A stretch of 64,000 nucleotides of DNA from a virus (lineage: Duplodnaviria; Caudoviricetes): IMG/VR virus record IMGVR_UViG_3300025387_000015, positions 12,555-76,554 of that record; one strand, 5' to 3'. Below the pieces are notes generated by a model that saw only the letters and a list, made by a program, of their open reading frames with translations, was not told the origin of the DNA and made no database searches. Below, piece by piece: positions 22,456 to 47,265 of the stretch. The translations under genes were made by a program, and so were the position numbers. Every line of letters starts with the position of its first letter. Position 1 is the first letter of the stretch.

Positions 22456-22463
22456 TATAAATA
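22456..22463 (+). promoter_or_regulatory. T4-type late promoter TATAAATA
   Basis: Exact consensus upstream of gp3. Confidence 0.75.
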
Positions 22464-22479
22464 GTTTAAAGGAGCTAAT

Positions 22480-23001
22480 ATGACAGCGATTAATGATACA
22501 CCAACTAATCTGAATTATCTTAGTCCACTCAACTTCAAGTTTTTGATAAAGAAAGCTCCTAATGTTAACTTCTTCATTCAGAAAGTTAATATTCCAAAAC
22601 TAACATTAAAATCAGTAATAATCCCAAATCAATCCGTACCAGTTCCATATCCAGGAGATCACTTGGATTATGGAACATTGGATATTACGTTTAAAGTAGA
22701 TGAAAAACTTCAGAACTATCTAGAAATACATAATTGGATCAGATATCTAGGTAAATTAGATTATAATGAATATTATAATTTAGAGAAGAATCCAACATAT
22801 ACAGGTGATGGTATATATTCTGATATTAATTTATCTGTTTTATCTAACATCAAAACAATCAACTATGATGTTGTATTTATTGATGCATATCCAGTAGAAT
22901 TGTCAAGTGTCACATTTAATACGACTGATAATGATGTTAATTATCTAGAGGCTTCAGCTTCATTTAAATACACTTACTACAATATTGCACAAACAGTTTA
23001 A
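22480..23001 (+). CDS. gp3: Tail completion/tube terminator gp3
   Basis: NYLSPLNFKF..NFFIQKVNIP, FKVDEKLQNYLEIHNW. Confidence 0.82.
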   Translation: MTAINDTPTNLNYLSPLNFKFLIKKAPNVNFFIQKVNIPKLTLKSVIIPNQSVPVPYPGDHLDYGTLDITFKVDEKLQNYLEIHNWIRYLGKLDYNEYYNLEKNPTYTGDGIYSDINLSVLSNIKTINYDVVFIDAYPVELSSVTFNTTDNDVNYLEASASFKYTYYNIAQTV

Positions 23002-23024
23002 TATAGTTTTCCTTGACATAAATG

Positions 23025-23053
23025 ATTATACTTGGTTATTCTGAAATTGTCAA
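23025..23053 (-). promoter_or_regulatory. Perfect sigma70 promoter TTGACA-N17-TATAAT, pointing antisense into gp3/gp23
   Basis: + strand ATTATA (23025-30), 17 nt, TGTCAA (23048-53). Confidence 0.6.
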
Positions 23054-23063
23054 ATCTTTTTTA

Positions 23064-23092
23064 TTGACTTTTAGATATTTTTATAGTATAGT
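23064..23092 (+). promoter_or_regulatory. sigma70-like promoter TTGACT-N17-TATAGT for uvsY
   Basis: Near-consensus hexamers with 17-nt spacer. Confidence 0.6.
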
Positions 23093-23117
23093 ATGAAATA
23101 TAATTGAGGAGAATTGT

Positions 23118-23552
23118 ATGAATATTGAAGAGATCATGACTCTGTGGGAATCAGATACAAATATCGATAGAACCGAATTAGGGGATGAAGCTCTAAAGGT
23201 TCCCAAACTCCACAGCAAATATTATAATATTTTAATTAAAGAAAGATTACTGCTACGTAAACTCGAAGCAGAAATGAAACAACTAAAACTCGATAAGTAT
23301 GAATTTCTCACTCAAGGACCAAACGACGAAACAAAAGAGAAAGGGTGGAAACTACCACCAAGGGGAATGATACTTAAAGGCGATCTACCAATGTATATTG
23401 ATGCTGATAAAGATATGATTAATTTAAGTTTGAAAATTGGTATGCAACATGAGAAAATAGAATTCCTAGATTCAGTAATTAAGACTATTATTAACAGAGG
23501 CTATATAATAAAGAACGCTATTGATTGGCAAAGGTTTACGATGGGAGCATAA
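23118..23552 (+). CDS. uvsY: Recombination mediator UvsY
   Basis: PKLHSKYYNIL, RGYIIKNAIDWQRF; synteny with uvsW. Confidence 0.88.
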   Translation: MNIEEIMTLWESDTNIDRTELGDEALKVPKLHSKYYNILIKERLLLRKLEAEMKQLKLDKYEFLTQGPNDETKEKGWKLPPRGMILKGDLPMYIDADKDMINLSLKIGMQHEKIEFLDSVIKTIINRGYIIKNAIDWQRFTMGA

Positions 23553-25006
23553 TGGTAGATGTAGTTGAGATCGAGAAATTCGATGAGGTGTATATAAAGA
23601 TCAAAGCTGATCCTGGTGTTATGATGGAGTTGAGTGAGTATTTTACTTTCAATGTCCCTGGCGCTAAATTCATGCCAGCATATAGAAGTAAATTTTGGGA
23701 TGGTAAGATTAGACTTTTGAATGTTATGACTGGTTTATTATATGCTGGTCTTCTTAGATATGTTGAAGAATTCTGTAGATCAAGAGAATATATTATCGAA
23801 CATCTTTCTGATTTTAGTTCAGAAGAATTTTCTGTCAAAGAAGCGAACGAGTTTATCGCTAAATTGAAACCAACCATGCAGCCAAGAGATTATCAGATCG
23901 AGGCGTTTATGCATGCAGTTCGTGAAAGGAGAGCTTTATTATTATCGCCTACCGCATCTGGTAAATCATTCATCATCTATCTATTAACGAGGTATTATGC
24001 GAGTCGCACTCTTATTGTTGTTCCAACTACTTCTCTTGTTTCTCAGCTTGCCTCTGATTTTGCTGACTACGGGTTTGACTCTAATATGTGGGTACATCGT
24101 GTATTTTCTGGACAAGATAAAGTATCAGATAAGCCGATTACCATCACAACGTGGCAATCGGTTTACAAATTACCTAAGACGTATTTCTCAAATTTTGATG
24201 TAGTGATAGGAGATGAAGCACATCTTTTTAAAGCAAAATCGCTTGCTTCTATTATGTCTAAACTTGATAATTGTAAATATCGCTTTGGCTTTACCGGAAC
24301 TCTGGATGGAACTGAAACAAACCGCCTCGTTCTTGAAGGATTGTTTGGACCTGTTCGTAAAGTTATATCTACATCAGAATTGATTGAAAAGAAACATCTG
24401 GCGGAATTTAGTATTAAAGCATTAGTTCTCAGTTATCCTGATGAAGTTAGAAAATATGTTTCTTCTTTAAAATATCAAGATGAAATAGATTATATCGTCA
24501 GAATGCCAGAACGAAACAATTTTATTAAAAATTTAGCATTGTCTCTTGAAGGTAATACTCTTTTATTATTTCAATTCGTTGACAAACACGGAAAAGTATT
24601 ATATGATATTATTAAGAGAGAAGCTGGTGATAGGAAAGTGTTTTATGTTTCTGGTTCTGTAGATGGAGAAGAACGAGAAGAAATTAGAAGGATTGTGGAA
24701 AATGAATCAGATGCTATTATTGTCGCTAGTTATGGTACTTTTTCTACCGGCGTCAATATTAAGAATCTGCATAGTGTTATTTTTGCTAGCCCAAGCAAGT
24801 CTCGCATTCGGAATCTTCAGTCCATTGGCAGGGGGTTACGTAAGTCTGATACTAAAACTGCTGCTACCTTATACGACATAGCAGATGATTTAACTTGGAA
24901 GAACAGAAAGAACTTTACTATACTACATTTTATGGAACGAATTAAGATATATAATGAAGAGAAGTTCAAGTACAAACTCTATCAGGTAAAATTGAAAGTA
25001 ACATAA
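23552..25006 (+). CDS. uvsW: SF2 DNA helicase UvsW
   Basis: PRDYQ, SPTASGKS, GDEAH, LQSIGRGLR. Confidence 0.93.
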   Translation: MVDVVEIEKFDEVYIKIKADPGVMMELSEYFTFNVPGAKFMPAYRSKFWDGKIRLLNVMTGLLYAGLLRYVEEFCRSREYIIEHLSDFSSEEFSVKEANEFIAKLKPTMQPRDYQIEAFMHAVRERRALLLSPTASGKSFIIYLLTRYYASRTLIVVPTTSLVSQLASDFADYGFDSNMWVHRVFSGQDKVSDKPITITTWQSVYKLPKTYFSNFDVVIGDEAHLFKAKSLASIMSKLDNCKYRFGFTGTLDGTETNRLVLEGLFGPVRKVISTSELIEKKHLAEFSIKALVLSYPDEVRKYVSSLKYQDEIDYIVRMPERNNFIKNLALSLEGNTLLLFQFVDKHGKVLYDIIKREAGDRKVFYVSGSVDGEEREEIRRIVENESDAIIVASYGTFSTGVNIKNLHSVIFASPSKSRIRNLQSIGRGLRKSDTKTAATLYDIADDLTWKNRKNFTILHFMERIKIYNEEKFKYKLYQVKLKVT

Positions 25007-25645
25007 ATGGAGTATTTCATTGAGAACAAAACAACATTACAACTATTTCCTAGTTTAGTGTTTCAGGGTAAGATAAATGATGATAGTCTGTGTGATAGAT
25101 TAGAAGAATATCTTTTGTCTTTGTGGAAAAATAAAGAGGGAATATTTGCCGAAGAAGAGGGGTTTACTTCTCACGATAATCTAAATGATAAACCAGAATT
25201 AAAAGAGTTATCTGATATTGTTTTGAAAGAAAGTAATTTTATACTAAATTTCTTTAAAGTAAAAAGAGACTCGCATTTTATAACTTCAATGTGGGCGAAT
25301 ATTTCTAGAGGAAGAAATATGCATCTAAAGCATATTCATCCTAATTCTTTTTTAAGTGGAGTGTTTTATGTTAAAACTCCAAAAGATTGTGGTCAGTTAG
25401 TAATAACAGACCCAAGACCTGGAAGTGAAGTAATACAACCAGACTATCATGAACGTGATGTATATAATTGTGGAAAGTATCATATTATACCAGAAAAAGG
25501 TAATATACATTTTTGGCAGAGTTGGTTGCCTCATTGTGTAGAAAAAGCATATTCTAAATCAGAAGAGAACAGAATATGCATTGCCTTTAATATTATGATA
25601 AAAGGTAAAGCTGTGAACCCAACTCAGAGATATGATTTTAATTGA
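25007..25645 (+). CDS. Putative 2OG-Fe(II) oxygenase (TIGR02466-like)
   Basis: HIHPNSFLSGVFYV, DPRP, WLPHCV, RICIAFN. Confidence 0.75.
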   Translation: MEYFIENKTTLQLFPSLVFQGKINDDSLCDRLEEYLLSLWKNKEGIFAEEEGFTSHDNLNDKPELKELSDIVLKESNFILNFFKVKRDSHFITSMWANISRGRNMHLKHIHPNSFLSGVFYVKTPKDCGQLVITDPRPGSEVIQPDYHERDVYNCGKYHIIPEKGNIHFWQSWLPHCVEKAYSKSEENRICIAFNIMIKGKAVNPTQRYDFN

Positions 25646-25655
25646 GGCTAGAAAT

Positions 25656-26219
25656 ATGAGAAAGAAAAACAATTACATTAACAACAAAACACTTTATGGT
25701 TCTATGATTCATTACAAAAATGAAGTCAAAGAGGCAAAAGCAAACGACGAAGAAGCTCCAATTGTTCCAAAGTATATTGGGGAGTCTATCATTCTTATCT
25801 GTAGTAATCTAGCAAAGAAACCAAACTTTTCTGGATATACATATAAAATGGATATGATTTCAGATGCAATTATGGACTGTGTTGCAGCTGTGGATAATTT
25901 TGATCCGGAAAGAACAAATAATCCTTTTGCCTATTTTACACAAATTGCTTGGAATGCTTTTATTCGTAGAATACAAAAAGAGAAAAAACAAACCTATATA
26001 AAACATAAGAATTTTGAAAACAGTTTTATGATGAATGAACTCTGGTCAGATGCTGAGAATATACATCTTAAAGCAAACGAATACTCCTCCGAAATAGTAA
26101 GATCTTTTGAAGATAAAAATAACTTGCCTAAAACTAAAAAGTCAAGTAAAATGGTTGGAGTAGAAAAGTTCTCAGGAGAAGAAGAAAATGAAAAAGAATC
26201 TACATCTAGTGCCAATTAA
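25656..26219 (+). CDS. gp55: Late transcription sigma factor gp55
   Basis: YINNK, KPNFSGYTY, NPFAYFTQIAWNAFIRRIQKEK. Confidence 0.93.
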   Translation: MRKKNNYINNKTLYGSMIHYKNEVKEAKANDEEAPIVPKYIGESIILICSNLAKKPNFSGYTYKMDMISDAIMDCVAAVDNFDPERTNNPFAYFTQIAWNAFIRRIQKEKKQTYIKHKNFENSFMMNELWSDAENIHLKANEYSSEIVRSFEDKNNLPKTKKSSKMVGVEKFSGEEENEKESTSSAN

Positions 26220-26373
26220 TATTTCTGACATCGCAGAAAGACTGGACTCAAAAACCCTATCTGAGAACGAGAAAGTAAATCTTTTGTTGAGGTTAGAAGC
26301 AATTCGTGACTTTTCTGCATCTGTGGTCGCAAAACATTCTCGTGGCCCAATATTGGTGCAAAATAAGAAATGA
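26188..26373 (+). CDS. Hypothetical protein
   Basis: Short ORF coupled between gp55 and gp47. Confidence 0.5.
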   Translation: MKKNLHLVPINISDIAERLDSKTLSENEKVNLLLRLEAIRDFSASVVAKHSRGPILVQNKK

Positions 26374-27440
26374 AAATTGGCCTTTTAACAGACAGTCATG
26401 CAGGAGTAAGAAATGACTCTTTGGCATTTCATGATTATATGCAGAAATTTTATTCTAATGTTTTTTTCCCTTATCTTGCTGATAATGGAATACGCACTGT
26501 TGTGCATTGTGGGGACATTATTGACCGTCGTAAGTATATTAACATCAACACGGCGTATCGTTTACGAAAAGATCTCATCGAGCCAGCCTTAAATCAAGGC
26601 ATCGAATGGCATCAGATTATTGGTAATCATGATACGTATCATAAAAATACTAATAAAGTGAGTTCTTTTATTGAACTTTTTGGCTCATACGAGAACTATA
26701 CGACCCTAAATATATATGATGACACAACCGAAGTAATGTTCGGTGATACTAAAATTCTGTTAATTCCGTGGATATGCGATGAGAATAGAGAACATTCTTT
26801 TAATCTGATAAGGAATACAGATGCGCAAATTGCTTTCGGTCATTTGGAACTCGAAGGCTTCGAAATGTTTAAGGGATCCATCGTTTCACATGGCGACGAT
26901 CCAACTCTGTTTGGACGTTTTGATATTGTCTGTTCTGGGCATTACCATCATCGGTCAAACCGTGGTAATATTTATTATCTCGGTTCTCCTGCAGAGTATA
27001 CTTGGTCTGATTACAATGATCCTCGAGGGTTTCATATCTTTGACACAGAAACAAGAGAACTAACATTTATTGAAAACCCCTATAAGATGTTTAAGAAAGT
27101 TTGGTATAATGATGGGAGCGAAGAGTTCCTAGACAGCGAAATGGATTATGAGCAGTTTGCAGGTTGTATTGTTAAGGTAATCGTTCAGGAAAAGAATAAT
27201 CCTTTCTGGTTTGAAAAGTTTGTTGATAATATAGAGAAACAAAATCCAGTAGATATACAGATTGTTGAAGATCATTTAAATCTTGGTCTAGAAGAAGATC
27301 AGGATATTGTCAACGAAGCTGAATCAACTCTTGAAATATTCAACAAATATATTGATAATGTCGAAATTAAAGGTGTAGATAAAATAAAGTTACAAAAGAA
27401 AATAAGTGAATTGTATCATGAGGCATTGACACTAGAATGA
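26370..27440 (+). CDS. gp47: Recombination endonuclease subunit gp47 (Mre11/SbcD-like)
   Basis: DSH, GDIIDRRK, GNHD, GHYH metallophosphoesterase motifs. Confidence 0.93.
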   Translation: MKIGLLTDSHAGVRNDSLAFHDYMQKFYSNVFFPYLADNGIRTVVHCGDIIDRRKYININTAYRLRKDLIEPALNQGIEWHQIIGNHDTYHKNTNKVSSFIELFGSYENYTTLNIYDDTTEVMFGDTKILLIPWICDENREHSFNLIRNTDAQIAFGHLELEGFEMFKGSIVSHGDDPTLFGRFDIVCSGHYHHRSNRGNIYYLGSPAEYTWSDYNDPRGFHIFDTETRELTFIENPYKMFKKVWYNDGSEEFLDSEMDYEQFAGCIVKVIVQEKNNPFWFEKFVDNIEKQNPVDIQIVEDHLNLGLEEDQDIVNEAESTLEIFNKYIDNVEIKGVDKIKLQKKISELYHEALTLE

Positions 27441-29137
27441 TATATTTTAAAAAGATTAGATGGAAGAATTTACTTTCTACAGGTAATGTGTTTACTGAAA
27501 TAGACTTATGTGGTAAAGATACAACTCTTATAGTTGGTCAGAATGGAGCTGGTAAATCAACTCTTCTTGATGCTTTATCTTTTGGTTTATTTGGTAAACC
27601 ATTTCGTAAAATCAACAAACCACAACTCGTTAACTCAATCACAGAAAAAAACTGTGTGGTAGAAGTAGAGTTCTCTATTGGCACAAATCAATATAAAATT
27701 ATTCGTGGAATTAAACCTAACATATTTGAAGTTTATCAGAACGAAGACATGCTAAATCAGTCTGCCGATGTCAAAGATTATCAAGAAATATTAGAGAAAC
27801 ATATTCTGAAGGTAAATCACAAATCATTTAATCAAGTTGTTATTCTTGGATCAGCAACTTTTCAGCCATTTATGCAGTTACCGGGAGGTCATCGTAGAGA
27901 GATTATCGAGGATCTTCTTGATCTTCAAATTTTCACTACGATGAATTCTTTATTGAAAGATAAAATACTAAAGAACAATGACAGTATCAGTAATGTTGTT
28001 TCAGAAAAAAGATTAATTGAATCTAAAATTGAAATGACAAAAGAACATCTAAAAGAGATGCAATCTAATACTGATAAATTGATTGAGGAAAAACAATCTC
28101 AAATAAATGATACTGATAAACAAATAACAGAAATATATATTAAACATAACACTATAGTTGATGAAATAGATAAACTACAATTACAAGTAGAGGACAATGA
28201 AAGCATTTCAAAGAAGATCAATAAACTCTCGCAATTACGGCACCAAATCCATGCGAGAATGTCGCTCCTCAATGATGATGTTGAGTTCTTCAGCAAAAAC
28301 ACAAGCTGCCCGACCTGTAAACAAGAGATCGAAGAAGAATTTAAAAATAAGTCTATTACAGAAAAGCAAGATCAAATTAAAGAAATTGAAAATGGACTTG
28401 AAAAACTTTCTGAAGAATATGAGACAGCTAATGTTCGATTAAAAGAAATAATGGAGATTAATAGTAAAATTCAAAATCTTCAGATGGAGAAAATTGAATT
28501 AAATACTAATATGAATTCAATGTCTCGCTTTTGTAAAATATTAGAAAAAGAGATTCTGGAATTACGTAATAAAGAAACTAAAGATATTAAAATTGTAGAT
28601 TTCGAGAACGACCTTAAAGATATAGAGAATAAGTATATTGAGTTATCAGAAGAAAAAAATGTATTATCTATCGCTTCTAGTATGCTTAAAGATGGCGGCA
28701 TTAAATCTAAAATAATTAGACAATATATTCCTGTAATTAATAAGTTAATTAATAAGTATCTGTCTTCAATGGATTTCTTTGTTTCTTTTGAACTCAATGA
28801 AGAATTTGTTGAGAGCATTAAGTCTAGATACAGAGATGATTTTACTTATGCTTCTTTTTCTGAAGGAGAAAAACAAAAGATCGATCTAGCATTATTGTTT
28901 ACTTGGAGAGCAGTAGCAAAACTAAGAAACTCCATAAATACTAATCTATTGATCATGGATGAAGTGTTTGACTCTTCTCTCGATCAGAATGCCACTGACT
29001 ATCTTATGAATATTATTAGAGATATATCTAAAGATAGTAATATAATTATCATATCGCACAAAGAACACATGAACGAAAAGTTCACAAACGTATTAAAATT
29101 TGTTAAACATAAGAATTTCTCACAATTACAGGAGTAG
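27437..29137 (+). CDS. gp46: Recombination ATPase subunit gp46 (Rad50/SbcC-like)
   Basis: GQNGAGKST, CPTC zinc hook, FSEGEK signature, MDEVFD. Confidence 0.95.
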   Translation: MIYFKKIRWKNLLSTGNVFTEIDLCGKDTTLIVGQNGAGKSTLLDALSFGLFGKPFRKINKPQLVNSITEKNCVVEVEFSIGTNQYKIIRGIKPNIFEVYQNEDMLNQSADVKDYQEILEKHILKVNHKSFNQVVILGSATFQPFMQLPGGHRREIIEDLLDLQIFTTMNSLLKDKILKNNDSISNVVSEKRLIESKIEMTKEHLKEMQSNTDKLIEEKQSQINDTDKQITEIYIKHNTIVDEIDKLQLQVEDNESISKKINKLSQLRHQIHARMSLLNDDVEFFSKNTSCPTCKQEIEEEFKNKSITEKQDQIKEIENGLEKLSEEYETANVRLKEIMEINSKIQNLQMEKIELNTNMNSMSRFCKILEKEILELRNKETKDIKIVDFENDLKDIENKYIELSEEKNVLSIASSMLKDGGIKSKIIRQYIPVINKLINKYLSSMDFFVSFELNEEFVESIKSRYRDDFTYASFSEGEKQKIDLALLFTWRAVAKLRNSINTNLLIMDEVFDSSLDQNATDYLMNIIRDISKDSNIIIISHKEHMNEKFTNVLKFVKHKNFSQLQE

Positions 29138-29140
29138 AAA

Positions 29141-29677
29141 ATGTTTGGATGGTTGAAGAATTTATTTAATTTTGGTGATTTTCAATTCAATCCTGAACCA
29201 CTTGGATTGTATTCTGTTGATGTAATTGATCCAAATAAATTAAAAGGAAAAGATAGACCACTATATGTAAAACAAGTATTAATTGATCTTGGTTGGAAAG
29301 ACTTTCAGGCAGCTGCTATGTGTGGTCAGTTTATGCAAGAATCTTATACAGACCTTCGTTGTAATGTTTGGGGCGATAAACATACTGCGTATGGTATTGC
29401 CCAGTGGAGAGGCAATAGACTTGCTGACCTTGAAACATTCGCAAAGAATTTGAATAAAGAAATAGGTGATCTAGATACACAAGCACGTTTTGTTAACTGG
29501 GAGCTTACCAAAGGTTCGCAGAAAAATGTTGGTAATAAATTGAAGAAAACAAAAGATATTGACGAAGCTCTGTTAGTTGCTATTGGTTATGAACGACCAC
29601 GTGGTTATACTACAGCAAATCCTGAGAATGGTGACGGATTTGCTAATCGTTGCAAATATGCAAAGAGTTTAATGTAA
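29141..29677 (+). CDS. Phage tail-lysozyme-family muramidase
   Basis: AAAMCGQFMQES, AYGIAQWRGNR, GYERP. Confidence 0.78.
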   Translation: MFGWLKNLFNFGDFQFNPEPLGLYSVDVIDPNKLKGKDRPLYVKQVLIDLGWKDFQAAAMCGQFMQESYTDLRCNVWGDKHTAYGIAQWRGNRLADLETFAKNLNKEIGDLDTQARFVNWELTKGSQKNVGNKLKKTKDIDEALLVAIGYERPRGYTTANPENGDGFANRCKYAKSLM

Positions 29678-30156
29678 TGGAACTTGTAAAACAAGATAAT
29701 CCTATTTTAACAAAAGTTTGCGAGGATTTTGATTTTCAGAATCCTCCATTCGATCCTGTTGAGTTTGCTAAAGATATAATGGCTTTTCTTTATGAGAACA
29801 ATGGATTGGGACTGGCAGCAAATCAGATAGGAATTCCTTATCGTATATTTGCTATGAGAGGAGCACCAGAAAACTTTGTTTGTTTCAACCCAAAGACTGT
29901 GACAATATCAAACGATAAAGTTGTCTTAGAAGAAGGTTGTTTATCATATCCTGGTCTTTTAGTTAAAGTTAAAAGACCTTCTATGATCAGAACAAGATTC
30001 ACCACACCAAATGGCGATACTATTACAAGACAATTCATTGGTATGTCAGCAAGAGTCTATCAACACGAAATGGATCATCTAGATGGCATTAGGTTTTTTG
30101 ACAAAGCTAATAAGTTTCATAAAGATCAGGCGTTCAGAAAATGGAAAAGAAAATAA
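29677..30156 (+). CDS. def: Peptide deformylase
   Basis: GLGLAANQIG, EGCLSYPG, QHEMDHLDG. Confidence 0.95.
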   Translation: MELVKQDNPILTKVCEDFDFQNPPFDPVEFAKDIMAFLYENNGLGLAANQIGIPYRIFAMRGAPENFVCFNPKTVTISNDKVVLEEGCLSYPGLLVKVKRPSMIRTRFTTPNGDTITRQFIGMSARVYQHEMDHLDGIRFFDKANKFHKDQAFRKWKRK

Positions 30157-30578
30157 TCCCAGCAAGAATAGAAGATGCCGTAATCATAAAGAATATCGAC
30201 GACGTAAGTTTCGAGAAGATATTTCATGAAGATCTAAAATACTATGAGCAATGTTTTAAAAATGGATACGATGTTTTTCTTTTGATGGTAGATGGTATAG
30301 CTGCAGGAGCGTTGATACTTTCGTTTATAGATTATGAAACAGTTGGTATTGAATCTATCTCAATAGCGCCTCAGTACCAGAAAAAGGGTTTAAGTAAATT
30401 CTTAATGGATTTTGTGGATGTTTATGCTGCTCCATATAAAAAGATTATTCTTGAAGTTTATATCGGTAACAAAAAAGCGATTGACATTTATACTAAAAAA
30501 GGGTATGATATAATTGCTACGTTGGAAGATTATTATGCTGATGGTTATAATGCATATGTTATGGAGAAAAAACTGTGA
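30141..30578 (+). CDS. GNAT acetyltransferase, RimI-like
   Basis: ISIAPQYQKKGLS acetyl-CoA motif, LEV..NKKAI..Y...GY, YYADGYNAYVM. Confidence 0.85.
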   Translation: MEKKIIPARIEDAVIIKNIDDVSFEKIFHEDLKYYEQCFKNGYDVFLLMVDGIAAGALILSFIDYETVGIESISIAPQYQKKGLSKFLMDFVDVYAAPYKKIILEVYIGNKKAIDIYTKKGYDIIATLEDYYADGYNAYVMEKKL

Positions 30579-30712
30579 AGTATTTTGATTTTGATATGCT
30601 CAACAAACATTTCGATGAACGATTATCATATATCTCTTCTTGGCTGTGGTTTATAATCATAGTCATGTCAGTATATGGTATTGCCAAAATGTTCTTAAAG
30701 TATGATAACTGA
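30575..30712 (+). CDS. 45-aa membrane peptide (not in ORF track)
   Basis: GTG overlapping the previous TGA, stop overlapping the next ATG; hydrophobic WLWFIIIVMSVYGIA. Confidence 0.55.
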   Translation: MKYFDFDMLNKHFDERLSYISSWLWFIIIVMSVYGIAKMFLKYDN

Positions 30713-31272
30713 TGAATATATTCTTTATCGATGAAAATCCTGTTCAAGCTGCGCAGTGGATGGTAGATCGTCATGTTGTTAAGATGATCTTAGAATCTGC
30801 ACAGCTTCTTTCAACCGCACATCGTATTCTCGATGGCAAAGAAATTCAGATACAAGCAAACATAGAACAAGAAGATGGTTCTCTCAAAACTCGCAAAAAG
30901 AAATTATGGATATTAGGAGACGCTCGTGACACAGTTTTATATTCAGCTACGCACATTAATCATCCGAGTTGTATATGGACTCGCGCAAGCGTTGAGAATT
31001 ATAATTGGTTAGTTGATCATTTCTTTGCTCTTATGCAAGAATATAATTATCGTTATGAAAAACAACATAAATGTTTTGGTGAACTTAGTTATATGCTACA
31101 ATCTCCACCAAAAAATCTAGAAGAATACGATATGACAGTAATTCCATCTGCTATGGATGATAAGTATATTGTGTCTGATAATCCTGTTGTTAATTATCGT
31201 AATTACTACAAAAATGGTAAAACCCATCTTCATAAATGGAAAAAACGTGAGGCTCCGGAGTGGATAAATTAA
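30712..31272 (+). CDS. Pyrimidine-dimer DNA glycosylase-like conserved phage protein
   Basis: MNIFFIDENP..DRHVVKMILESAQLLSTAH, THINHPSCIWTR, YRNYY. Confidence 0.6.
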   Translation: MNIFFIDENPVQAAQWMVDRHVVKMILESAQLLSTAHRILDGKEIQIQANIEQEDGSLKTRKKKLWILGDARDTVLYSATHINHPSCIWTRASVENYNWLVDHFFALMQEYNYRYEKQHKCFGELSYMLQSPPKNLEEYDMTVIPSAMDDKYIVSDNPVVNYRNYYKNGKTHLHKWKKREAPEWIN

Positions 31273-31838
31273 AAGAAACAGTCATTATTGATGACATTAT
31301 ATCAAACGATTTACAAGATAAATTTCATGATCTAGTCATGTCTCAGCCATTTAGGTTTTTGAAAGACATGTCTTATACTGATGGAGAAATTGTTAATCCA
31401 TCTTATGGGTTCAATTTATTGTTTAAACATCCAGAATATGGAGTATTATCTCCATTGTATGAACAAGTATGTGTTCCTATTGTCAATTCTGTGATAGAAA
31501 AACTTACTTTAGAGATTAAAGATATATATTATACTAGAGCTTTTCTTCAAGTTCCTTTGTCTAAAAAATTTTACAAAGGTAAAAATGGAGTACACGTAGA
31601 TATACCAGATCCACATTATGCTTGTGTTTACTATTTGAATGACTCAGATGGAGATACTATTATATACGAACAGAACATACATGATACTGATCCTGGTTCT
31701 AAAGGCGTAGATTTGATAAGACACAAAACAGTTACACCGAAAAAAGGTAGATTTGTTATGTTTGACGGTGCAAGGTATCACTGTTCGAGCCAGCCACAAG
31801 AAAACTATCGTTGTATAATAAACTTTGACTTAATATAA
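31260..31838 (+). CDS. Putative 2OG-Fe(II) oxygenase
   Basis: HVD..VYYLNDSDGDT, PKKGRFVMFDG..YHCSS, RCIINFD. Confidence 0.75.
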   Translation: MDKLKETVIIDDIISNDLQDKFHDLVMSQPFRFLKDMSYTDGEIVNPSYGFNLLFKHPEYGVLSPLYEQVCVPIVNSVIEKLTLEIKDIYYTRAFLQVPLSKKFYKGKNGVHVDIPDPHYACVYYLNDSDGDTIIYEQNIHDTDPGSKGVDLIRHKTVTPKKGRFVMFDGARYHCSSQPQENYRCIINFDLI

Positions 31839-31853
31839 GGAATGTAGTATAAT
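31825..31853 (+). promoter_or_regulatory. sigma70-like promoter TTGACT-N17-TATAAT
   Basis: Near-consensus; heads the MazG/TET cluster. Confidence 0.6.
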
Positions 31854-32229
31854 GTCAAATATGTTTCAGGATGTAAAAGATTTTCAAACAGCTGTTGGGC
31901 AGAATGTTGGAACAAAACCAGAATTACCTGATGGTGCTGAACGAGAGTTGAGACTTAAACTACTAAAGGAAGAATATGAAGAATACATTCAAGGAGAATG
32001 CCAAAACGATGTGGAGAATATTGCTAAAGAGCTCGCTGATATTATTTACATTGTTTGTGGCACTGCTGCATCTTACGGTATTCCCCTCGATAAAGTCTTC
32101 GACGCAGTACACGCCTCGAATATGGCAAAATTAGTTGATGGTAAACCAGTACGCCGTGCTGATGGTAAAATTCTGAAACCAGATGGTTGGCGACCACCTG
32201 ATATTAAATCTATTTTATGGAGTGAGTGA
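31852..32229 (+). CDS. MazG-like (all-alpha) NTP pyrophosphohydrolase
   Basis: LLKEEYEEY, KELADIIY, VHASNMAK, RADGKILKP. Confidence 0.82.
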   Translation: MSNMFQDVKDFQTAVGQNVGTKPELPDGAERELRLKLLKEEYEEYIQGECQNDVENIAKELADIIYIVCGTAASYGIPLDKVFDAVHASNMAKLVDGKPVRRADGKILKPDGWRPPDIKSILWSE

Positions 32230-33596
32230 TGGTTAAACAGATTGTAGCAAAAGAAAAAATTGATTGCACACATCTTCTTGGTACATTCCTTGACGAAAGT
32301 CATTTTGATGTGGTAATTGAAGAAGATTGTGACGGTTATCAACCTGCCATATGCGATCTTGGGCAGAAAGCAGTTTGTGATATTGAATGTGATAATTGTG
32401 ATAAAGGTCATGACGAGCGTAGAATTGCTTTTAAGTTTCGCAAGAATTTCTTTTCTAAAGAAGAACAGGATATGGCTTATCGTGGTTTGAGAGAAGCTGC
32501 GACAGAAAGTCAAAATCGTGGTCTTGCTGCTGGGCCACGTGGAGAAATGTTAGCAACGGAGGGTCGTGGCGGTAGAGATTGGGTTACTCCTTATCAACAC
32601 GAGATTCTTGATTTTCTTTTGGATGATGGTGCTAATCTTTACAATGATACTTCGATTGCGAGTATTCGCGAGAAGTATAAAAATGGCAACCCAAAGGATT
32701 CAGATGAAACACGTGGAACTGTTTGGTTACGTTCAGAAGTAACTAAAAGATACCCTGAATATCATGGCTGGTTTGATAAATGGGTAGATGGTCTTAGTAA
32801 CAAATCTAAAGATGAAGTTCTAGCAGAAGCAAAAATGGTTGCCGAGAAGTGGGCATCTACAACCAATTATGCTAAATCTGTATTCTCCGGTGTTGCTGGT
32901 TGGTATGATAGATACCCAAGAATTCCTTATGGTCGTGCTACTTCTTATACTGAGAAACACCCAGAATTGTTTGAACTAGCATATCCTTTCCTTCAAACAT
33001 TGAATGATGGTTTTAAAGAATTACTTCCTTGGCGTTGGGCAAACCAGAAACGTCAAGCAGATAAACTTGATCCACGTTTCTTGGTTCCTGGAACTGTTTT
33101 CACAACAATTACTGTTAATAAAACTTTCCGTACAGCAGCACATCTTGATGCTGGTGATTATGCCGATGGCCTAAGTAATCTACTTGTTCTAGGAACTGGA
33201 GAATATACTGGAGGTTATCTTGTATTTCCGGAATATCGTATTGCTATTAATGTTCGCCCTGGTGATCTTCTTCTTGTCAACAATCATGAAGTTATCCATG
33301 GAAACACACCTATTGTTCTTAACAATCCTGACGACCCTACTTGTGAGCGTATTTCTGTAGTATGTTACTTCAGAGAAAAGATGTTAGAACTACAGTCTTA
33401 TGAGTATGAAAATCTAAGACGTAAATATGTTGATGAACGTAGACTAAATAAATCACACAAACTACAACGTCCGTTGTGGAATGGTATCTCTCCCGGAATG
33501 TGGGAAGAAAAAGAATGGTATGATTTTCTCCATGCTCATGGTATGAAAGATCCATATGGTAATGATGAATTGGCGAGTTTGGAAGGATTTTTCTAA
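32226..33596 (+). CDS. TET/JBP-family 2OG-Fe(II) dioxygenase
   Basis: FTTITVNKTFRTAAHLDAGD (HxD), GGYLVFPEY, GDLLLVNNHEVIHGNT (distal H), ERISVVCYFRE. Confidence 0.82.
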   Translation: MMVKQIVAKEKIDCTHLLGTFLDESHFDVVIEEDCDGYQPAICDLGQKAVCDIECDNCDKGHDERRIAFKFRKNFFSKEEQDMAYRGLREAATESQNRGLAAGPRGEMLATEGRGGRDWVTPYQHEILDFLLDDGANLYNDTSIASIREKYKNGNPKDSDETRGTVWLRSEVTKRYPEYHGWFDKWVDGLSNKSKDEVLAEAKMVAEKWASTTNYAKSVFSGVAGWYDRYPRIPYGRATSYTEKHPELFELAYPFLQTLNDGFKELLPWRWANQKRQADKLDPRFLVPGTVFTTITVNKTFRTAAHLDAGDYADGLSNLLVLGTGEYTGGYLVFPEYRIAINVRPGDLLLVNNHEVIHGNTPIVLNNPDDPTCERISVVCYFREKMLELQSYEYENLRRKYVDERRLNKSHKLQRPLWNGISPGMWEEKEWYDFLHAHGMKDPYGNDELASLEGFF

Positions 33597-34381
33597 TGGA
33601 TTATCAAATAGCAATCCCATCATACAAACGTCCAGAAACTATCAAAAAGAAAACATTGAAAGTTCTCGAGAGTTATAATATTGATCCTTCTCGTATTACA
33701 ATTTTCGTGGCGGATGATGAAGAACTTACTAAGTATAAAGAATCCTTAAAAGATACACCTTATCAGAAACTTGTTGTTGGTGTTCATACCATTGGTGCCC
33801 AACGTAACTTCATCGAAAAGTATTATCCTGAGGGAACAAAACTCATGATGTTTGATGATGACGTTGAAGAAGTTCAAAAGAAAATTAGTGAACAAAAGCT
33901 CGGAAGAATTGACAATTTAGAAGAAGAGGTTATAATAAAAGGGTTTGAAGAATGCGAGAAAATTGGAGCTAAGACTTTTGGTATCTACGCAGCTTCTAAT
34001 GCTTATTTTATGAAAGATAGAATATATACCAAACTTTGTTATATTATTGCCTCTATGTTTGGAGTTATTGTCGAACATTCCAACGATCTTGAGCGTGTGA
34101 CAAATCATGGCGAAGATTATGAATATTCTATTCGTCAGTATATACGTAATGGTTCGGTTGTTAGGTTTGACAATTATACAGTAAAATCTAACTATTATAA
34201 AGAAGATGGTGGATTACAAACTATTCGCACAAAAGAATATGTTTATGAATCTATTAAAAAGATCGCAGATATGTTTCCTGATTTCTGTACGATGTATATC
34301 AGAGAATCGACTGGTAATGCTGAATTGAGATTAAAGGATACAAGAAAAGAAGTTGGAAATACTTTAGAAAGTTTCTTTTGA
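33596..34381 (+). CDS. TET-associated (GREB1-like) glycosyltransferase, GT-A fold
   Basis: IAIPSYKR, RNFI, MFDDDV, GEDYEYS; coupled to the TET/JBP gene. Confidence 0.75.
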   Translation: MDYQIAIPSYKRPETIKKKTLKVLESYNIDPSRITIFVADDEELTKYKESLKDTPYQKLVVGVHTIGAQRNFIEKYYPEGTKLMMFDDDVEEVQKKISEQKLGRIDNLEEEVIIKGFEECEKIGAKTFGIYAASNAYFMKDRIYTKLCYIIASMFGVIVEHSNDLERVTNHGEDYEYSIRQYIRNGSVVRFDNYTVKSNYYKEDGGLQTIRTKEYVYESIKKIADMFPDFCTMYIRESTGNAELRLKDTRKEVGNTLESFF

Positions 34382-34395
34382 TTATTGGAGGAATT

Positions 34396-34767
34396 ATGGC
34401 AAAGGTGACGCATGGTGGGTATATGTTTGAGAATGGTGATACATTTACCCAAACAGTATCTGTTTCTTCTACAGGTTCTTTAAAATTAGAACCACTTTAC
34501 AAATATGCAGAAGGACAGATTATATCAGATTTCAAAGAATATATAGATAAAACGTATCAGCAGCACTACAAGACAGAAGAAGATAGGATCGAATGTTTTG
34601 ATGCTTGGATTGCTCTTGATGATGCCACACCTACTTTCAGAAATACTGCTTTAAAGTATTTGTGGCGTTATGGTAAGAAGAATGGTAATAATAAAGATGA
34701 TTTAATGAAAGCTCTTCATTATATTCTAATGTGTTTATATAACGATCATTACAAGAAAGGTGAATAA
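34396..34767 (+). CDS. DUF3310/SaV-like protein
   Basis: HY..IECFD..NTALKYLWRYGKK...DDLMKALHY. Confidence 0.75.
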   Translation: MAKVTHGGYMFENGDTFTQTVSVSSTGSLKLEPLYKYAEGQIISDFKEYIDKTYQQHYKTEEDRIECFDAWIALDDATPTFRNTALKYLWRYGKKNGNNKDDLMKALHYILMCLYNDHYKKGE

Positions 34768-34770
34768 ATT

Positions 34771-35625
34771 ATGGAAATTCAAATCCCAGTAGAAAAGCTA
34801 CGCGAACGTGGACTGTTTGTTGCCACTCCTATGTATGGTGGTCAGTGCGCAGGTATGTTTGCTCGTTCAGTAGCTGATTTGTCGGCTCTGTGCACAAAGT
34901 ATGGTATTCCTTTACAGTTCTATTTCTTGTTCAATGAGTCGTTGATTACTCGAGCAAGAAACTATTGTTGCGATGAATTCATGCGTTCTAACACACAACA
35001 CATGATGTTTATTGACTCTGATATTGGTTTCAATCCACAAGATGTTATTGCTCTTATGGCTCTTCAAGCAAATGACGAGAAGTATGACATCATTGGTGGC
35101 CCATATCCTAAGAAGTGTATCTCTTGGGAAAAGATTAAGCACGCTGTTGATAAAGGTGTTGCTGATGAAGATCCAAACGTTCTGGAGAAGTTCGTTGGTG
35201 ATTATGTGTTCAATCCAAAGGGTAATCAGACAAGCATTCCTCTTTCAGAACCAGTTGAGGTTCTTGAGATTGGAACTGGTTTTATGATGGTAACAAAGAA
35301 TGCTATGCAGAAATTCTACGATTCTTATAAAGATCAGTACTCATATAAACCAGATCATGTTCGCACTGAACATTTTGATGGTTCACGTGAAATCCTTATG
35401 TACTTCCAAGCAGAAGTTGATCCAGTTTCTAAGCGATATCTTTCAGAAGACTACTGGTTCTGCCAGAAAGCGCAGCAGATTGGTCTAACAACTTGGTTCT
35501 GTCCTTGGATGGTTCTACAACATGTTGGTACATATATTTTTGGTGGGTCTCTTGCTGATATTGCTTCAGTTGGTGCATCAGCTACAGCTGATCCGTCAAA
35601 ACTTGGTGGTAAGAAAAAGAAGTAA
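34771..35625 (+). CDS. GT-A fold glycosyltransferase-like protein
   Basis: FVATPMYGG, ESLITRARN, FIDSD (DxD), YLSEDYWFC. Confidence 0.75.
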   Translation: MEIQIPVEKLRERGLFVATPMYGGQCAGMFARSVADLSALCTKYGIPLQFYFLFNESLITRARNYCCDEFMRSNTQHMMFIDSDIGFNPQDVIALMALQANDEKYDIIGGPYPKKCISWEKIKHAVDKGVADEDPNVLEKFVGDYVFNPKGNQTSIPLSEPVEVLEIGTGFMMVTKNAMQKFYDSYKDQYSYKPDHVRTEHFDGSREILMYFQAEVDPVSKRYLSEDYWFCQKAQQIGLTTWFCPWMVLQHVGTYIFGGSLADIASVGASATADPSKLGGKKKK

Positions 35626-35640
35626 GCGAAAGGATATATT

Positions 35641-36294
35641 ATGAATATTAGTGCAAACACCGTTACTGTTCTTAAAAACTTCCATTCTATCAATCCTTCG
35701 ATTGTTATCAAGGAAGGCAATGTGCTGGAGACTATCTCCAGCACTAAAACAATCAAAGCAAAAGCAGTAGTTAATACTACTTTCCCTCGTCGGTTTGCTA
35801 TGTATGATCTCAATAAATTAATCTCTATGATTAGTTTTTATGAGAATCCACAATTAAGGTTTGAGGACAATAGCGTAGTTGTATTTGATGGAACAGAACA
35901 AACAGTTATTCCTTATTCAGATGAATCAACTATAATTAAGGTTCCTGAAAAGGAAATTAAGTTGCCTTCTATTGATGTTTCAGTTAAGATTACTAATGAT
36001 AATATCAAGAAGGTAGAAAAGGCTCTTGGATTGCTTTCTGTTCCAGAAATCTTTATTTCAGGAGATGGTAATACTGTTTATCTCCAAGCAGCTGATTCAA
36101 AGAATCCATCAAGTTATTCTCACTCTATTCCTGTTGGAGAGACGGATAAAACTTTCCGTGCAATTTTTAAAGCGGAGAATATTAAAGTTTTGCCAGGTGA
36201 TTATAATGTTGAAATTTGTTCTAAAGGTATCTCAAGGTTCTTTAACGATAATCTAGAGTACTTTATTGCAGTTGAATCAACTTCAACTTTCTGA
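35641..36294 (+). CDS. gp45: Sliding clamp gp45
   Basis: LKNFHSINPSI, FAMYDLN, PGDYNV, YFIAVE. Confidence 0.9.
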   Translation: MNISANTVTVLKNFHSINPSIVIKEGNVLETISSTKTIKAKAVVNTTFPRRFAMYDLNKLISMISFYENPQLRFEDNSVVVFDGTEQTVIPYSDESTIIKVPEKEIKLPSIDVSVKITNDNIKKVEKALGLLSVPEIFISGDGNTVYLQAADSKNPSSYSHSIPVGETDKTFRAIFKAENIKVLPGDYNVEICSKGISRFFNDNLEYFIAVESTSTF

Positions 36295-36301
36295 TAAAAT
36301 T

Positions 36302-36327
36302 GGGGGTCTTGCACCCCCTTCTTTTTG
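36302..36327 (+). terminator. Rho-independent terminator-like hairpin after gp45
   Basis: GGGGGT-CTTGC-ACCCCC followed by TTCTTTTT. Confidence 0.65.
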
Positions 36328-36342
36328 TTATGATGGAGAAAT

Positions 36343-36642
36343 GTGATGAGAATGCCAAAGAGACCCAGAACTGGGGTCGTCACGAGAAAGATTGCAGAAG
36401 ATTTACAAGTAACGACCATTTATGGTAACAAAGAAGTTGTTAAAATTACTTGCGCAACTTGTGGTATTCCGAAACTAAAATCTGAATTTTATTTAGAATC
36501 CAAAAGTAAAAGGAAGTACCAAAATCAAGTAAGAAAACAGTGTGTTAATTGTTGGGATCAATACAATGGATACATGGGTCCAAACAAAACTGTTTCTAGC
36601 AACAATATTATATCATTCTGTGAAGAGGTCGTAGATGCTTGA
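36343..36642 (+). CDS. Small zinc-finger protein
   Basis: CATC...KSEFY...CVNC. Confidence 0.6.
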   Translation: MMRMPKRPRTGVVTRKIAEDLQVTTIYGNKEVVKITCATCGIPKLKSEFYLESKSKRKYQNQVRKQCVNCWDQYNGYMGPNKTVSSNNIISFCEEVVDA

Positions 36643-37573
36643 GCAATTTTTGTGGGTAGAGAAATATCGCCCAAAGACTATAGAAGAAACTATTTTACCT
36701 TGTGACTTAAAAGCAGTATTCCAACAGTTTGTCGATCAGAAAAGTATACCTAATCTTATACTTACTGGAACAGCAGGTATTGGAAAAACTACTGTAGCAA
36801 AAGCAATGCTCGAACAACTTGGTTGTGATTATATTGTAATTAATGGATCTATGAATGGCAATATCGATACCTTACGAAATGAAATTCTTAACTTCGCATC
36901 AGCAGTATCATTATCAGGTGGAAGAAAATACGTTATCCTTGATGAAGCAGATTACCTTAATGCCAACAGCACTCAACCTGCACTTCGCAACTTCATGGAA
37001 GAATTTTCCAGAAACTGTGGATTTATTCTCACATGTAATTTCAAAAATAGAATTATCGAACCGTTACATTCTAGGTGCTCTGTCATAGATTTTAAAATAA
37101 ATAAAAAAACAACAGCTAAACTGGCTGCTCAATTTTTCAAAAGATGCTGTCTGATATTGGAACAGGAGGAAATTAAACATGACAAAGCAGTTGTGGCAGA
37201 AGTTATCAACAAACACTTCCCAGACTGGAGGCGTGTACTCAATGAATTACAGAGATATTCTGCTACTGGCAGTATTGATTCTGGTATTCTTGCCAATCTT
37301 CAGGAAACTTCCATCAAGCAGCTTATTGAGTTCATAAAAGAAAAGAATTTCACTGAAGTCCGTAAATGGGTATTTGAAAATCTAGACACAAACGTAAATG
37401 AATTGTTCAGAAAATTATATGACACTTCTTCTGAATATCTTAAACCAAATGAAATTCCAGCTTTTGTTTTGCTTATAAGTAAATATCAATATCAGTCTGC
37501 TTTTGTTGCAGATCAAGAAATAAACTTGGTTGCATTTTTCTCTGAAGTAATGTTAGAAGGTTTCTATAGATGA
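36635..37573 (+). CDS. gp44: Clamp loader large subunit gp44
   Basis: LWVEKYRP, GTAGIGKT, LDEADYL, PLHSRC. Confidence 0.95.
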   Translation: MLEQFLWVEKYRPKTIEETILPCDLKAVFQQFVDQKSIPNLILTGTAGIGKTTVAKAMLEQLGCDYIVINGSMNGNIDTLRNEILNFASAVSLSGGRKYVILDEADYLNANSTQPALRNFMEEFSRNCGFILTCNFKNRIIEPLHSRCSVIDFKINKKTTAKLAAQFFKRCCLILEQEEIKHDKAVVAEVINKHFPDWRRVLNELQRYSATGSIDSGILANLQETSIKQLIEFIKEKNFTEVRKWVFENLDTNVNELFRKLYDTSSEYLKPNEIPAFVLLISKYQYQSAFVADQEINLVAFFSEVMLEGFYR

Positions 37574-37932
37574 ACCCTTTTGACTTAGTAAATGATATAT
37601 CATATGCAAAGAAATATATTCTAGAAGAAGAAAAGCATTATTTACCCTTTATAGTAAATACTCATTTTTCTTATTTTGGTGATTCTATATTCTTTGCTAA
37701 TGAAATGAATATGAATTACCATTTAGATAAGAAATTACAACATGACTATTATTTTCATGCCCTTCGTAAAAACAAAAGAAAGTCTAAATGGCACAAAAAA
37801 GGAAATGAAGACTCATTAGATTGCATACAACGTTATTATGGATATGGACCACAAAAGGCAAAAGAAGCTGCCAAGATCTTATCCAAGAAACAGGTCGAAT
37901 ATATTGTTAAAAAAATGACTCCAGAAGCATAA
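37570..37932 (+). CDS. gp62: Clamp loader small subunit gp62
   Basis: YLPFIVN, ANEMN, YYGY; synteny. Confidence 0.88.
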   Translation: MNPFDLVNDISYAKKYILEEEKHYLPFIVNTHFSYFGDSIFFANEMNMNYHLDKKLQHDYYFHALRKNKRKSKWHKKGNEDSLDCIQRYYGYGPQKAKEAAKILSKKQVEYIVKKMTPEA

Positions 37933-37943
37933 ACACAATTTTA

Positions 37944-37951
37944 TATAAATA
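37944..37951 (+). promoter_or_regulatory. T4-type late promoter TATAAATA
   Basis: Exact consensus upstream of regA. Confidence 0.65.
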
Positions 37952-46404: not shown

Positions 46405-47265
46405 TTAAAATTCACTGATATATTCAGCTAAGTTTTTCAATTTATTTGCTATAAAATAATTCATTAATTTACTACGGTCACGCCCAGTTTGTTCATTATA
46501 CTGGGTTAATACTTTCTCTTTAATTTCATTTGGAGTATATTGAAGATCTATAAGCTGTCTATTACGGCAGAAATTACGATAAGTCTTTTCATCATAATCT
46601 TTTCCTGGAATACTGTTCAATAATTGTTCCATTCTTTTAGCAGTAAGTGGCTTCTGTCTAGTTCCAACAACAAAGCAATTATCGTCAGATAGAACATTTG
46701 GAACTCCATCGCTAGTATCGCCCTTCATAATGTGCTCGAGTAAGAAACGGTCTGGGTTGTCATGTTTGATCCACTTCTTTCGAGTAGGATCATATTGACT
46801 AACATTAGCGTGCTTATGCAACTGAATAAAATCTTTGTCCCCTGAGAGAATTAGAATCTTCATGCCAGTATTTAGTTCTTGGCCGAATTCAGACACTAAG
46901 CTGGCAATAATATCATCTGCCTCGGCTGATTCAACATCAATGACCCTGTATGGGAAAAACTCCTTGAGTTCGGCACGAATTTTGTTCATGCACTCAAAGA
47001 TTTCTTTCCAGTTGAGTTCTGACTCTGCAATGGCTTTTTTACGATTTGCTTTATAATATGGAAATAACTGTTTGCGCCAGTAATTGGTGTTGTCGCATGC
47101 AATGACAATCTCACCATATTCTGAGCCAAACTTTTGTTTGTATGAACGAATGGCATTAAGCACCATATGCCTTACCATTCCTTCTTCTACTTGGGCATTT
47201 AGATGATTCCCAAGTTGCATCATCAAATTAGATAACATCACCTGATTCAAATCAACGATAATCAC
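46405..47265 (-). CDS. rnh: RNase H / 5'-3' flap exonuclease
   Basis: YYKANR, EADD, SGDKDFIQL, GDTSDGVPN. Confidence 0.92.
   Translation of the reverse strand: MIIVDLNQVMLSNLMMQLGNHLNAQVEEGMVRHMVLNAIRSYKQKFGSEYGEIVIACDNTNYWRKQLFPYYKANRKKAIAESELNWKEIFECMNKIRAELKEFFPYRVIDVESAEADDIIASLVSEFGQELNTGMKILILSGDKDFIQLHKHANVSQYDPTRKKWIKHDNPDRFLLEHIMKGDTSDGVPNVLSDDNCFVVGTRQKPLTAKRMEQLLNSIPGKDYDEKTYRNFCRNRQLIDLQYTPNEIKEKVLTQYNEQTGRDRSKLMNYFIANKLKNLAEYISEF

Follow-up and report, generated by a model that had tools for sequence, protein, structure and literature searches.

A TET/JBP dioxygenase–glycosyltransferase cluster ahead of the sliding-clamp gene of a T4-like phage: a probable thymine hypermodification module

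Enzymes of the TET/JBP kind, which hold a central place in eukaryotic epigenetics, are believed to derive from phages. What, then, does such an enzyme do in a phage that couples it to a DNA glycosyltransferase just ahead of the sliding-clamp gene, with no cytosine C5-methyltransferase (C5-MT) in its vicinity? The question is raised by a stretch of 64,000 nucleotides (the window, to which all coordinates refer) that spans positions 12,555 to 76,554 of the IMG/VR record IMGVR_UViG_3300025387_000015, a 76,554-bp viral contig of ~35% G+C from a T4-like phage, with a CheckV completeness of ~46%. Five co-oriented genes at 31852-35625 code for a MazG-type pyrophosphohydrolase, a TET/JBP dioxygenase of the 5mYOX type, a TET-associated glycosyltransferase (TAGT), a DUF3310 protein and a second glycosyltransferase of the GT-A fold, and are followed downstream by gp45, gp44 and gp62; successive junctions up to gp45 are overlaps of 4, 1 and 4 nt and gaps of 3 and 15 nt. 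The original prediction, made from the letters without database searches, had named these five genes as tightly coupled ahead of the clamp and had read them as a system for post-replicative DNA hypermodification: each gene was recovered in our analysis, the coupling with gp45 as the next gene was borne out, and post-replicative hypermodification remains the best reading. More specifically, with a probability of roughly 0.6, we regard the cluster as a post-replicative, probably clamp-tethered module for the hypermodification of thymine with a base-J-like product. A megablast search with the cluster against 50,697 phage genomes recovered no near-identical phage record.

The oxidase, its adjacent glycosyltransferase and a swappable slot

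The second gene (32226..33596, + strand; an alternative ATG start lies at 32229) codes for a long-form TET/JBP dioxygenase of 456 aa, predicted to depend on Fe(II) and 2-oxoglutarate (2OG). Its residues 238-384 match the Pfam model PF12851 with 83.3 bits (gathering cut-off 34.9) and the whole falls into phrog_24024 (E 2.5e-151); Pfam gave no other significant domain, a sub-threshold TauD match overlapping the Tet_JBP region. The predicted iron ligands H306-x-D308 and H354/H358 and the predicted 2OG-binding R375 are invariant in 26 orthologues, and the HRD motif aligns with the HRD of TET2. Sequence searches for a close solved structure gave only marginal matches (TET2, E 0.02 with a profile), and a Foldseek search with the AlphaFold2 model of the dioxygenase (predicted local distance difference test 75) placed CcTet, NgTet1, TET2 and CMD1 at the top (E 6e-8 to 5e-6, probability 1.00). 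An invariant aspartate, D311, takes the position of TET2 N1387, a residue that contacts cytosine; as an argument from base recognition this was given no weight for the substrate. The N-terminal extension holds a variable cysteine-rich insert (C-x-n-C-x3-C-x2-C type, residues ~40-62) that most orthologues possess but that a clean deletion has removed from several (L048, L060, L065, L074 and L079).

Full-length homologues occur in the complete cultured phages Stenotrophomonas DLP_6 (52% identity), Caulobacter Cr30 (46%), C48C1 (45.5%) and Synechococcus S-CBWM1 (28%), and on 186 viral metagenome contigs. The homologue of the Pelagibacter phage HTVC112P, with a core 51% identical to that of the window's enzyme, directly follows a clear ParB_N gene. 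A profile search of 1.84 billion representatives further recovered natural fusions of Tet_JBP with TAGT and with a kinase. In two of these (P0054 and P0078, ~1120-1145 aa) an N-terminal Tet_JBP domain and a TAGT domain near the C-terminus are separated by ~450 unannotated residues, and a third (P0079, 658 aa; C-terminus DLSEMFG) joins Tet_JBP to P-loop nucleotide kinase 3 (PF18751). An assignment of the 1044-1145 aa profile matches to JBP2 was rejected, as they are Tet_JBP-TAGT fusions instead.

The third gene (33596..34381, +) codes for the TAGT, a GT-A-type DNA glycosyltransferase whose match to PF20691 (57.7 bits against a cut-off of 27.5) spans the full profile, positions 1-205 of 205. Invariant across 11 orthologues are its R12, D87-D88-D89 and E173-D174-Y175, which conform to the R...DDD...EDY/F active-site signature that Pyle et al. 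reported for GT-A enzymes acting on phage DNA and for JGT of trypanosomes (bioRxiv 10.1101/2023.12.21.572611). The TAGT coding sequence also contains a perfect 12/12 sigma-70 consensus (TTGACA-16-TATAAT, 33909-33936, +), either an internal promoter or a chance occurrence.

Comparison of related loci revealed a conserved gene order, phrog_624, MazG, TET, a variable slot, DUF3310, GT-A, gp45, gp44 and gp62. In the window and in ~20 loci the slot between TET and DUF3310 holds TAGT alone, and in 37 related loci it holds an amino-acid:DNA transferase (AADT; PF18724, 40.9 bits against 26.2) with a small P-loop kinase, often extended by a glutamine amidotransferase (GATase), an N6/N4 methyltransferase, GNAT enzymes, an enzyme resembling inositol-1-phosphate synthase and a ~450-aa protein whose match to ParB_N is weak. 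The window's own record has no AADT, kinase or GATase, its slot being of the TAGT type. The AADT call rests on the Pfam model and the kinase call is weak; the PHROG names of the cassette families are uninformative or misleading (e.g., 'terminase small subunit' for the kinase). In tblastn searches the cassette AADT and kinase gave no match to the enzymes of ViI, SP10, PhiW-14 and M6, their matches being confined to Cr30, Ralstonia phage RP13, Melnitz phages and Microbacterium phages. Dioxygenases that accompany AADT/kinase/GATase/ParB-like slots are 55-90% identical to that of the window. On a quick tree of the dioxygenases the slot types are interleaved, the TAGT label requiring at least five changes; for example, the TAGT-type L014 has as its sister (96*), at ~90% identity, L015, whose slot combines AADT and GATase with a ~490-aa protein in the place of the ParB-like one. 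These comparisons suggest that one conserved oxidase may prime alternative decorations, sugar or amino-acid, through swapping of the slot. Clean slot swapping round one conserved oxidase goes beyond the literature that we searched.

These cassettes bear directly on the substrate. AADT has been shown experimentally to act on phosphorylated 5-hydroxymethyldeoxyuridine, and contigs with TET_JBP, kinase and AADT that lack a hydroxymethylase for deoxyuridine monophosphate were read by Lee et al. as pointing to thymine oxidation (PMC8989533). O'Toole et al. have since demonstrated phage thymine dioxygenases, one clade of which is linked to ParB, GATase, kinase and AADT, and they find a C5-MT in only 6% of phage 5mYOX pathways (PMC13229309). 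Taking as a C5-MT any PF00145 match at E<=1, we detected none in the 76,554-bp record, which is ~46% complete; the absence noted in the original prediction for the 64 kb thus extends to the remainder of this incomplete record. Nor was any found in the four complete genomes (DLP_6, Cr30, C48C1 and S-CBWM1) or in five large related contigs, among them two relatives of 98% and 82% completeness, the latter of the TAGT type. Likewise, no ThyA-family hydroxymethylase was found, the five large contigs included, except for a ThyA homologue in Cr30. The absence of a C5-MT from the relatives, the near-identical dioxygenases serving AADT/kinase/GATase cassettes, the ParB-adjacent homologue with its 51% identical core, the published work on AADT and on phage thymine dioxygenases, and the Tet_JBP-TAGT and Tet_JBP-kinase fusions together favour thymine, which we take to be the likely substrate. 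Of the two substrates, thymine and 5-methylcytosine, the base-J-like option on thymine that the original prediction had put forward is thus the better supported by comparison, and its disaccharide idea is unsupported (see below).

A clamp-type tail at the C-termini of the modification enzymes

The dioxygenase ends in SLEGFF (33576..33593, +) and the TAGT in TLESFF (34361..34378, +), sequence matches to what are putatively gp45-binding peptides. In T4-type phages such acidic-hydrophobic C-termini are established, interchangeable gp45-binding epitopes (PMC2988020), and the T4 polymerase gp43 and gp55 end in SLDFLF and SLDFLY, respectively. A strict form of the pattern is present in three of the 104 open reading frames (ORFs) of the record, namely the dioxygenase, the TAGT and gp44. 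Among the dioxygenase orthologues the tail follows the pattern [S/T/N]-L-[E/D]-x-F-F and is kept in ~65 of 69; in the TAGTs it is kept in 20 of 20 metagenomic orthologues. The gp43 polymerases of relatives terminate in NLEDFF or TLEDFF, the latter in both G002 and C48C1, the TET of C48C1 ending in SLEEFF. Of the 231 ORFs in the 98%-complete relative, gp43 and the dioxygenase alone have the tail, where chance would give 0.12. Moreover, the tail covaries with that of the polymerase: in Cr30, gp43 ends in DLSSLF and the TAGT-like protein in DLSKLF.

The tail is also found on a slot GT-B, on slot family C10 (4/4) and on many AADTs, where it takes a gp55-like form (VGLEKFF versus VGVEKFS in gp55); it was not found on the kinase, GATase, ParB-like, MazG, DUF3310 and second-glycosyltransferase families. 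The TET homologues of HTVC112P, P12024L and S-CBWM1 are without it: S-CBWM1 gave no match for gp45 or PolB, and HTVC112P and P12024L (a Nonlabens phage with a short TET and a TAGT) are 32-36 kb non-T4-like phages, in neither of which a clamp search was made. Across the family, five of 89 short (~300 aa) representatives have the tail versus 13 of the 15 closest long forms. The match to the polymerase tail and to the T4 epitope, the conservation, the specificity, the covariation and the absence from the TET homologues of these three phages all suggest that the dioxygenase and the TAGT probably dock on gp45 (35641..36294, +; identified by Pfam and PHROG matches), the proposed platform, and that modification is probably clamp-tethered. 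No paper that reports tails of this kind on TET/JBP, TAGT or AADT enzymes came to light, and a polymerase-type tail on an oxidase and its alternative transferases goes beyond the literature searched.

Several further proteins are worth recording in this connection. Slot family C10 (e.g., L042:1548-2333; 261 aa), without Pfam or PHROG match, stands first in the slot ahead of AADT and ends in SLDEFF or TLDNFF; it may be an unrecognised DNA-acting enzyme. The gp55 of the window (25632-26219, +; Sigma70_r2) has a conserved VGVEKFS followed by an acidic stretch and not a polymerase-type tail, and an acidic ORF of 73 aa (56428-56649, -) that ends in MGDLFEEE is a candidate gp33 co-activator. In DLP_6 (L100) the dioxygenase ends in TLGDFFV and the longest polymerase ORF extracted in RLQPGGA, which is not clamp-type; the polymerase gene there may be split or may extend past the fetched stretch.

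In the mechanism that we propose, the 456-aa enzyme would first hydroxylate thymine in phage DNA to 5-hydroxymethyluracil (5hmU), upon which the adjacent TAGT would add a sugar to the 5hmU hydroxyl to give a base-J-like nucleobase. Both enzymes, judged by their tails, would dock on the gp45 encoded 1.3 kb downstream and act on newly replicated DNA. In relatives, the slot holds AADT and kinase instead, often with GATase and the ParB-like protein, which would give alternative decorations of the primed base.

Several points weigh against this mechanism. Some phage 5mYOXs, such as TET89, act on both thymine and 5-methylcytosine (5mC; PMC8256090), a host methyltransferase could supply 5mC, and with the record ~46% complete, its missing half could hold a C5-MT or a ParB. 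For TAGT-family and phage GT-A enzymes the acceptors demonstrated so far are 5-hydroxymethylcytosine (5hmC) and glucosyl-5hmC, with no example of 5hmU, and the predicted thymine-oxidising activity rests on comparison with relatives. The cassette protein (family C5) owes its ParB_N call to sub-threshold matches (E 2e-4 to 0.06). As to the tail, the gp43 of the source phage lies outside the record, such that the match to the polymerase is made through relatives, and the third strict match in the record, gp44 (36635-37573, +), ends in MLEGFYR; this match is absent from the orthologue in the 98%-complete relative and is probably coincidental or structural. Finally, T4 alpha-glucosyltransferase binds gp45 in pull-downs, but this interaction is not the main determinant of the level of glucosylation (PMC13216743), so that clamp tethering may matter only modestly.

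A stronger version, that gp45 is the obligate DNA-loading partner of the long T4-like thymine dioxygenases in place of a ParB-like activator, is conceivable, although we hold it doubtful. If true, the dioxygenase and the transferases would need to sit on the clamp behind the fork in order to work on duplex DNA. The lack of activity of clade C1 enzymes without ParB on their own in E. coli (PMC8256090, PMC13229309) would then be explained, as would the ability of a post-replicative pathway to mark phage DNA selectively and completely.

Alternatives and the surrounding genes

An anti-restriction or anti-CRISPR purpose of the cluster is plausible. In its stead, the enzymes might place sparse, sequence-specific marks that regulate replication, packaging or transcription and provide no global armour against restriction; the characterised phage thymine dioxygenases modify only 1-35% of thymines with YTY or NTR preference, and a role akin to epigenetics has been raised by their discoverers (PMC13229309). 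Masking of the whole genome is the better fit to clamp tethering and to bulky decorations that can be swapped, and we consider such marks an unlikely account of the cluster.

The shared tail could also bind another partner (gp32 or a scaffold), mediate association of TET with TAGT, or serve as a degradation or localisation tag, with modification not coupled to the clamp. In favour of this, clamp binding by these peptides is a prediction from sequence; T4 alpha-glucosyltransferase, a gp45 binder, itself has no such tail; and the gp55 of the clade carries the somewhat different segment VGVEKFS. We nonetheless judge it distinctly unlikely, given that the tail is almost identical to that of the cognate polymerase and to the mapped gp45 epitope of T4, in Cr30 varies together with that of gp43, occurs only on DNA-acting enzymes, and is missing from the TET homologues of S-CBWM1, where gp45 has no match, and of the non-T4-like HTVC112P and P12024L.

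The fifth gene of the cluster (34771..35625, +; 284 aa) brings in a further possibility. It belongs to phrog_1574 (E 2e-57), its top structural matches (STIV A197, GalNAc-T2, the glycosyltransferase domain of LH3, and Mnn9) identify a GT-A fold, its D82-x-D84 is invariant, and its C-terminus is disordered and lysine-rich. Most orthologues end in such a tail (KKKK, SKKMMKSKNK and similar), hinting at nucleic-acid affinity, and two lineages (L026/L027 and L053) have a helical insertion of 40-50 residues. The original prediction had allowed for a two-step addition in which the TAGT attaches a first sugar and this enzyme extends it to a disaccharide on DNA. There is indeed precedent for glycosyltransferases that act in sequence to assemble a di- or trisaccharide on a DNA base (bioRxiv 10.1101/2023.12.21.572611), the two genes are ~390 bp apart, and the GT-A fold, the DxD and a lysine-rich tail that could favour binding of nucleic acid would suit the second enzyme to the task. 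However, its gene keeps its place beside gp45 with either TAGT or AADT in the slot, relatives with AADT and without TAGT included. It also occurs in phages of the PhiM12 group, with a position between gp46 and gp45 in Sinorhizobium phage PhiM12 itself, and close to gp45 in Ochrobactrum phage OC, our homologue search giving no match for TET in the PhiM12 group or in OC, and it lacks the clamp tail of the other DNA-acting enzymes. The second enzyme is a replisome-module glycosyltransferase that is not TET-specific, and the disaccharide scheme is quite improbable.

Less probable still is that the dioxygenase, like those of phage clades A and B, oxidises 5mC made by a C5-MT of the host or of the missing half, with the TAGT yielding glycosyl-5hmC: all biochemically characterised phage TET plus glycosyltransferase pathways ending in a sugar do act on 5hmC (PMC8256090; bioRxiv 10.1101/2023.12.21.572611), the record is incomplete and TET89 takes both bases, but no PF00145 match appeared in the four complete cultured relatives or the 98%- and 82%-complete ones, orthologues of near-identical sequence supply AADT/kinase cassettes, which are known for 5hmU only, and phage 5mC pathways have the C5-MT adjacent to TET, which is not the case here.

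The thymine hypermodification module that we favour is set in a backbone of more general distribution. The MazG/PRA-PH-type nucleotide pyrophosphohydrolase (31852..32229, +; Pfam E 5e-17, phrog_671 E 4e-40) is beside TET in 62 of 84 related loci, whereas in DLP_6 and Cr30 it has another place within the replication module. That it serves as a specific partner of the dioxygenase by depleting a canonical dNTP was considered and rejected, as it is a backbone gene that is displaced in these two phages. Together with the DUF3310 protein (34378..34767, +; 25.7 bits against 24, phrog_480 E 6e-22), it belongs to the conserved backbone, and neither is a specific partner of the dioxygenase. A sigma-70-like promoter site (TTGACT-17-TATAAT, 11/12; 31825..31853, +; a weak call by consensus match only) lies at the MazG start, a strong G+C-rich hairpin with a T-run resembling a terminator follows gp45 (36302..36318, +; from sequence), and no T4 late-promoter box was found across 22463-37944; these are a weak indication of a single early or middle transcription unit that takes in the cluster and gp45.

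The same replication region has further genes for 2OG-Fe(II) oxygenases, one at 25007-25645 (+; PF13759, E 2e-23) and a second, with a weak PF13640 match, at 31260-31838 (+), directly upstream of MazG and present in seven of the 84 related loci. Elsewhere in the window, five overlapping genes at 47691-51180 (-), adjoining an RNase H (46405-47265), code for a SIS isomerase, a GHMP kinase, a GT-B, a HAD phosphatase and a cytidylyltransferase-like protein. The kinase and GT-B of this sugar-nucleotide pathway are equally present in TAGT-type and AADT-type relatives, and the pathway looks like a clade-wide core module. The idea that it feeds DNA glycosylation was rejected: the pathway is real, but it is not linked to the slot type.

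Relation to known systems and significance

As a gene set, a phage 5mYOX with a glycosyltransferase and without a C5-MT is of an already published kind; such clusters have been described in bulk (PMC13229309, bioRxiv 10.1101/2023.12.21.572611, PMC8989533), and the original prediction's view of the cluster type as unusual does not hold. The closest systems are the 5mYOX clades C1/C2 (O'Toole et al. PNAS 2026, PMC13229309) and the TET_JBP/5-HMUDK/AADT clusters (Lee et al. NAR 2021, PMC8989533), which share with the window a TET/JBP enzyme without a C5-MT, orthologues linked to AADT, P-loop kinase, GATase and ParB-like genes, glycosyltransferases as frequent neighbours, and post-replicative action. 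Whereas those enzymes have ~290-300 aa, that of the window, at 456 aa, has ~105 extra N-terminal residues and the clamp-type tail. Unlike the ParB-dependent subclass of thymine dioxygenases, this record gave no match to ParB (PF02195), a weak ParB_N being present in some of the long cassettes of relatives.

The C5-MT/TET/glycosyltransferase pathways of phages (Burke et al. 2021, PMC8256090; Pyle et al., bioRxiv 10.1101/2023.12.21.572611) likewise have TET followed by a GT-A enzyme with the R...DDD...EDY signature, and gp45/clamp genes have been noted in their neighbourhoods. They differ in acting on cytosine: here there is no C5-MT adjacent or in the complete relatives, and the acceptor is probably 5hmU, not 5hmC. 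With trypanosomatid base J (JBP1/JBP2 and JGT) the cluster would share the predicted path from thymine over 5hmU to glycosyl-5hmU, and the TAGT has the signature reported for JGT; the window's system has neither a J-binding domain nor SNF2, and so may work alike but is not a member of the base J system. The tails resemble the epitopes of T4/RB69 gp43, gp55 and gp33 (PMC2988020) in being an extreme C-terminal [S/T]-L-[D/E]-x-[F/L]-[F/Y] after a variable linker, in common with the cognate polymerase, with the difference that here the putative peptide, as recognised from sequence, is on TET/JBP and TAGT and in relatives on AADT and GT-B. T4 alpha-glucosyltransferase and gp45 (Sommer 2004; PMC13216743) provide a precedent for a DNA glycosyltransferase that binds the clamp, albeit through an enzyme without the tail.

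The demonstration of thymine dioxygenases in phages is recent, and a ParB-like helper is required by one subclass of them. The clamp tail suggests how the modification enzymes of T4-like phages find their DNA, namely by joining the docked clients of gp45 and acting on fresh copies. Providing for a clamp requirement may rescue phage dioxygenases that seem inactive in heterologous screens. The swappable slot, in turn, offers a compact example of how phages diversify the masking of their DNA against restriction and CRISPR.

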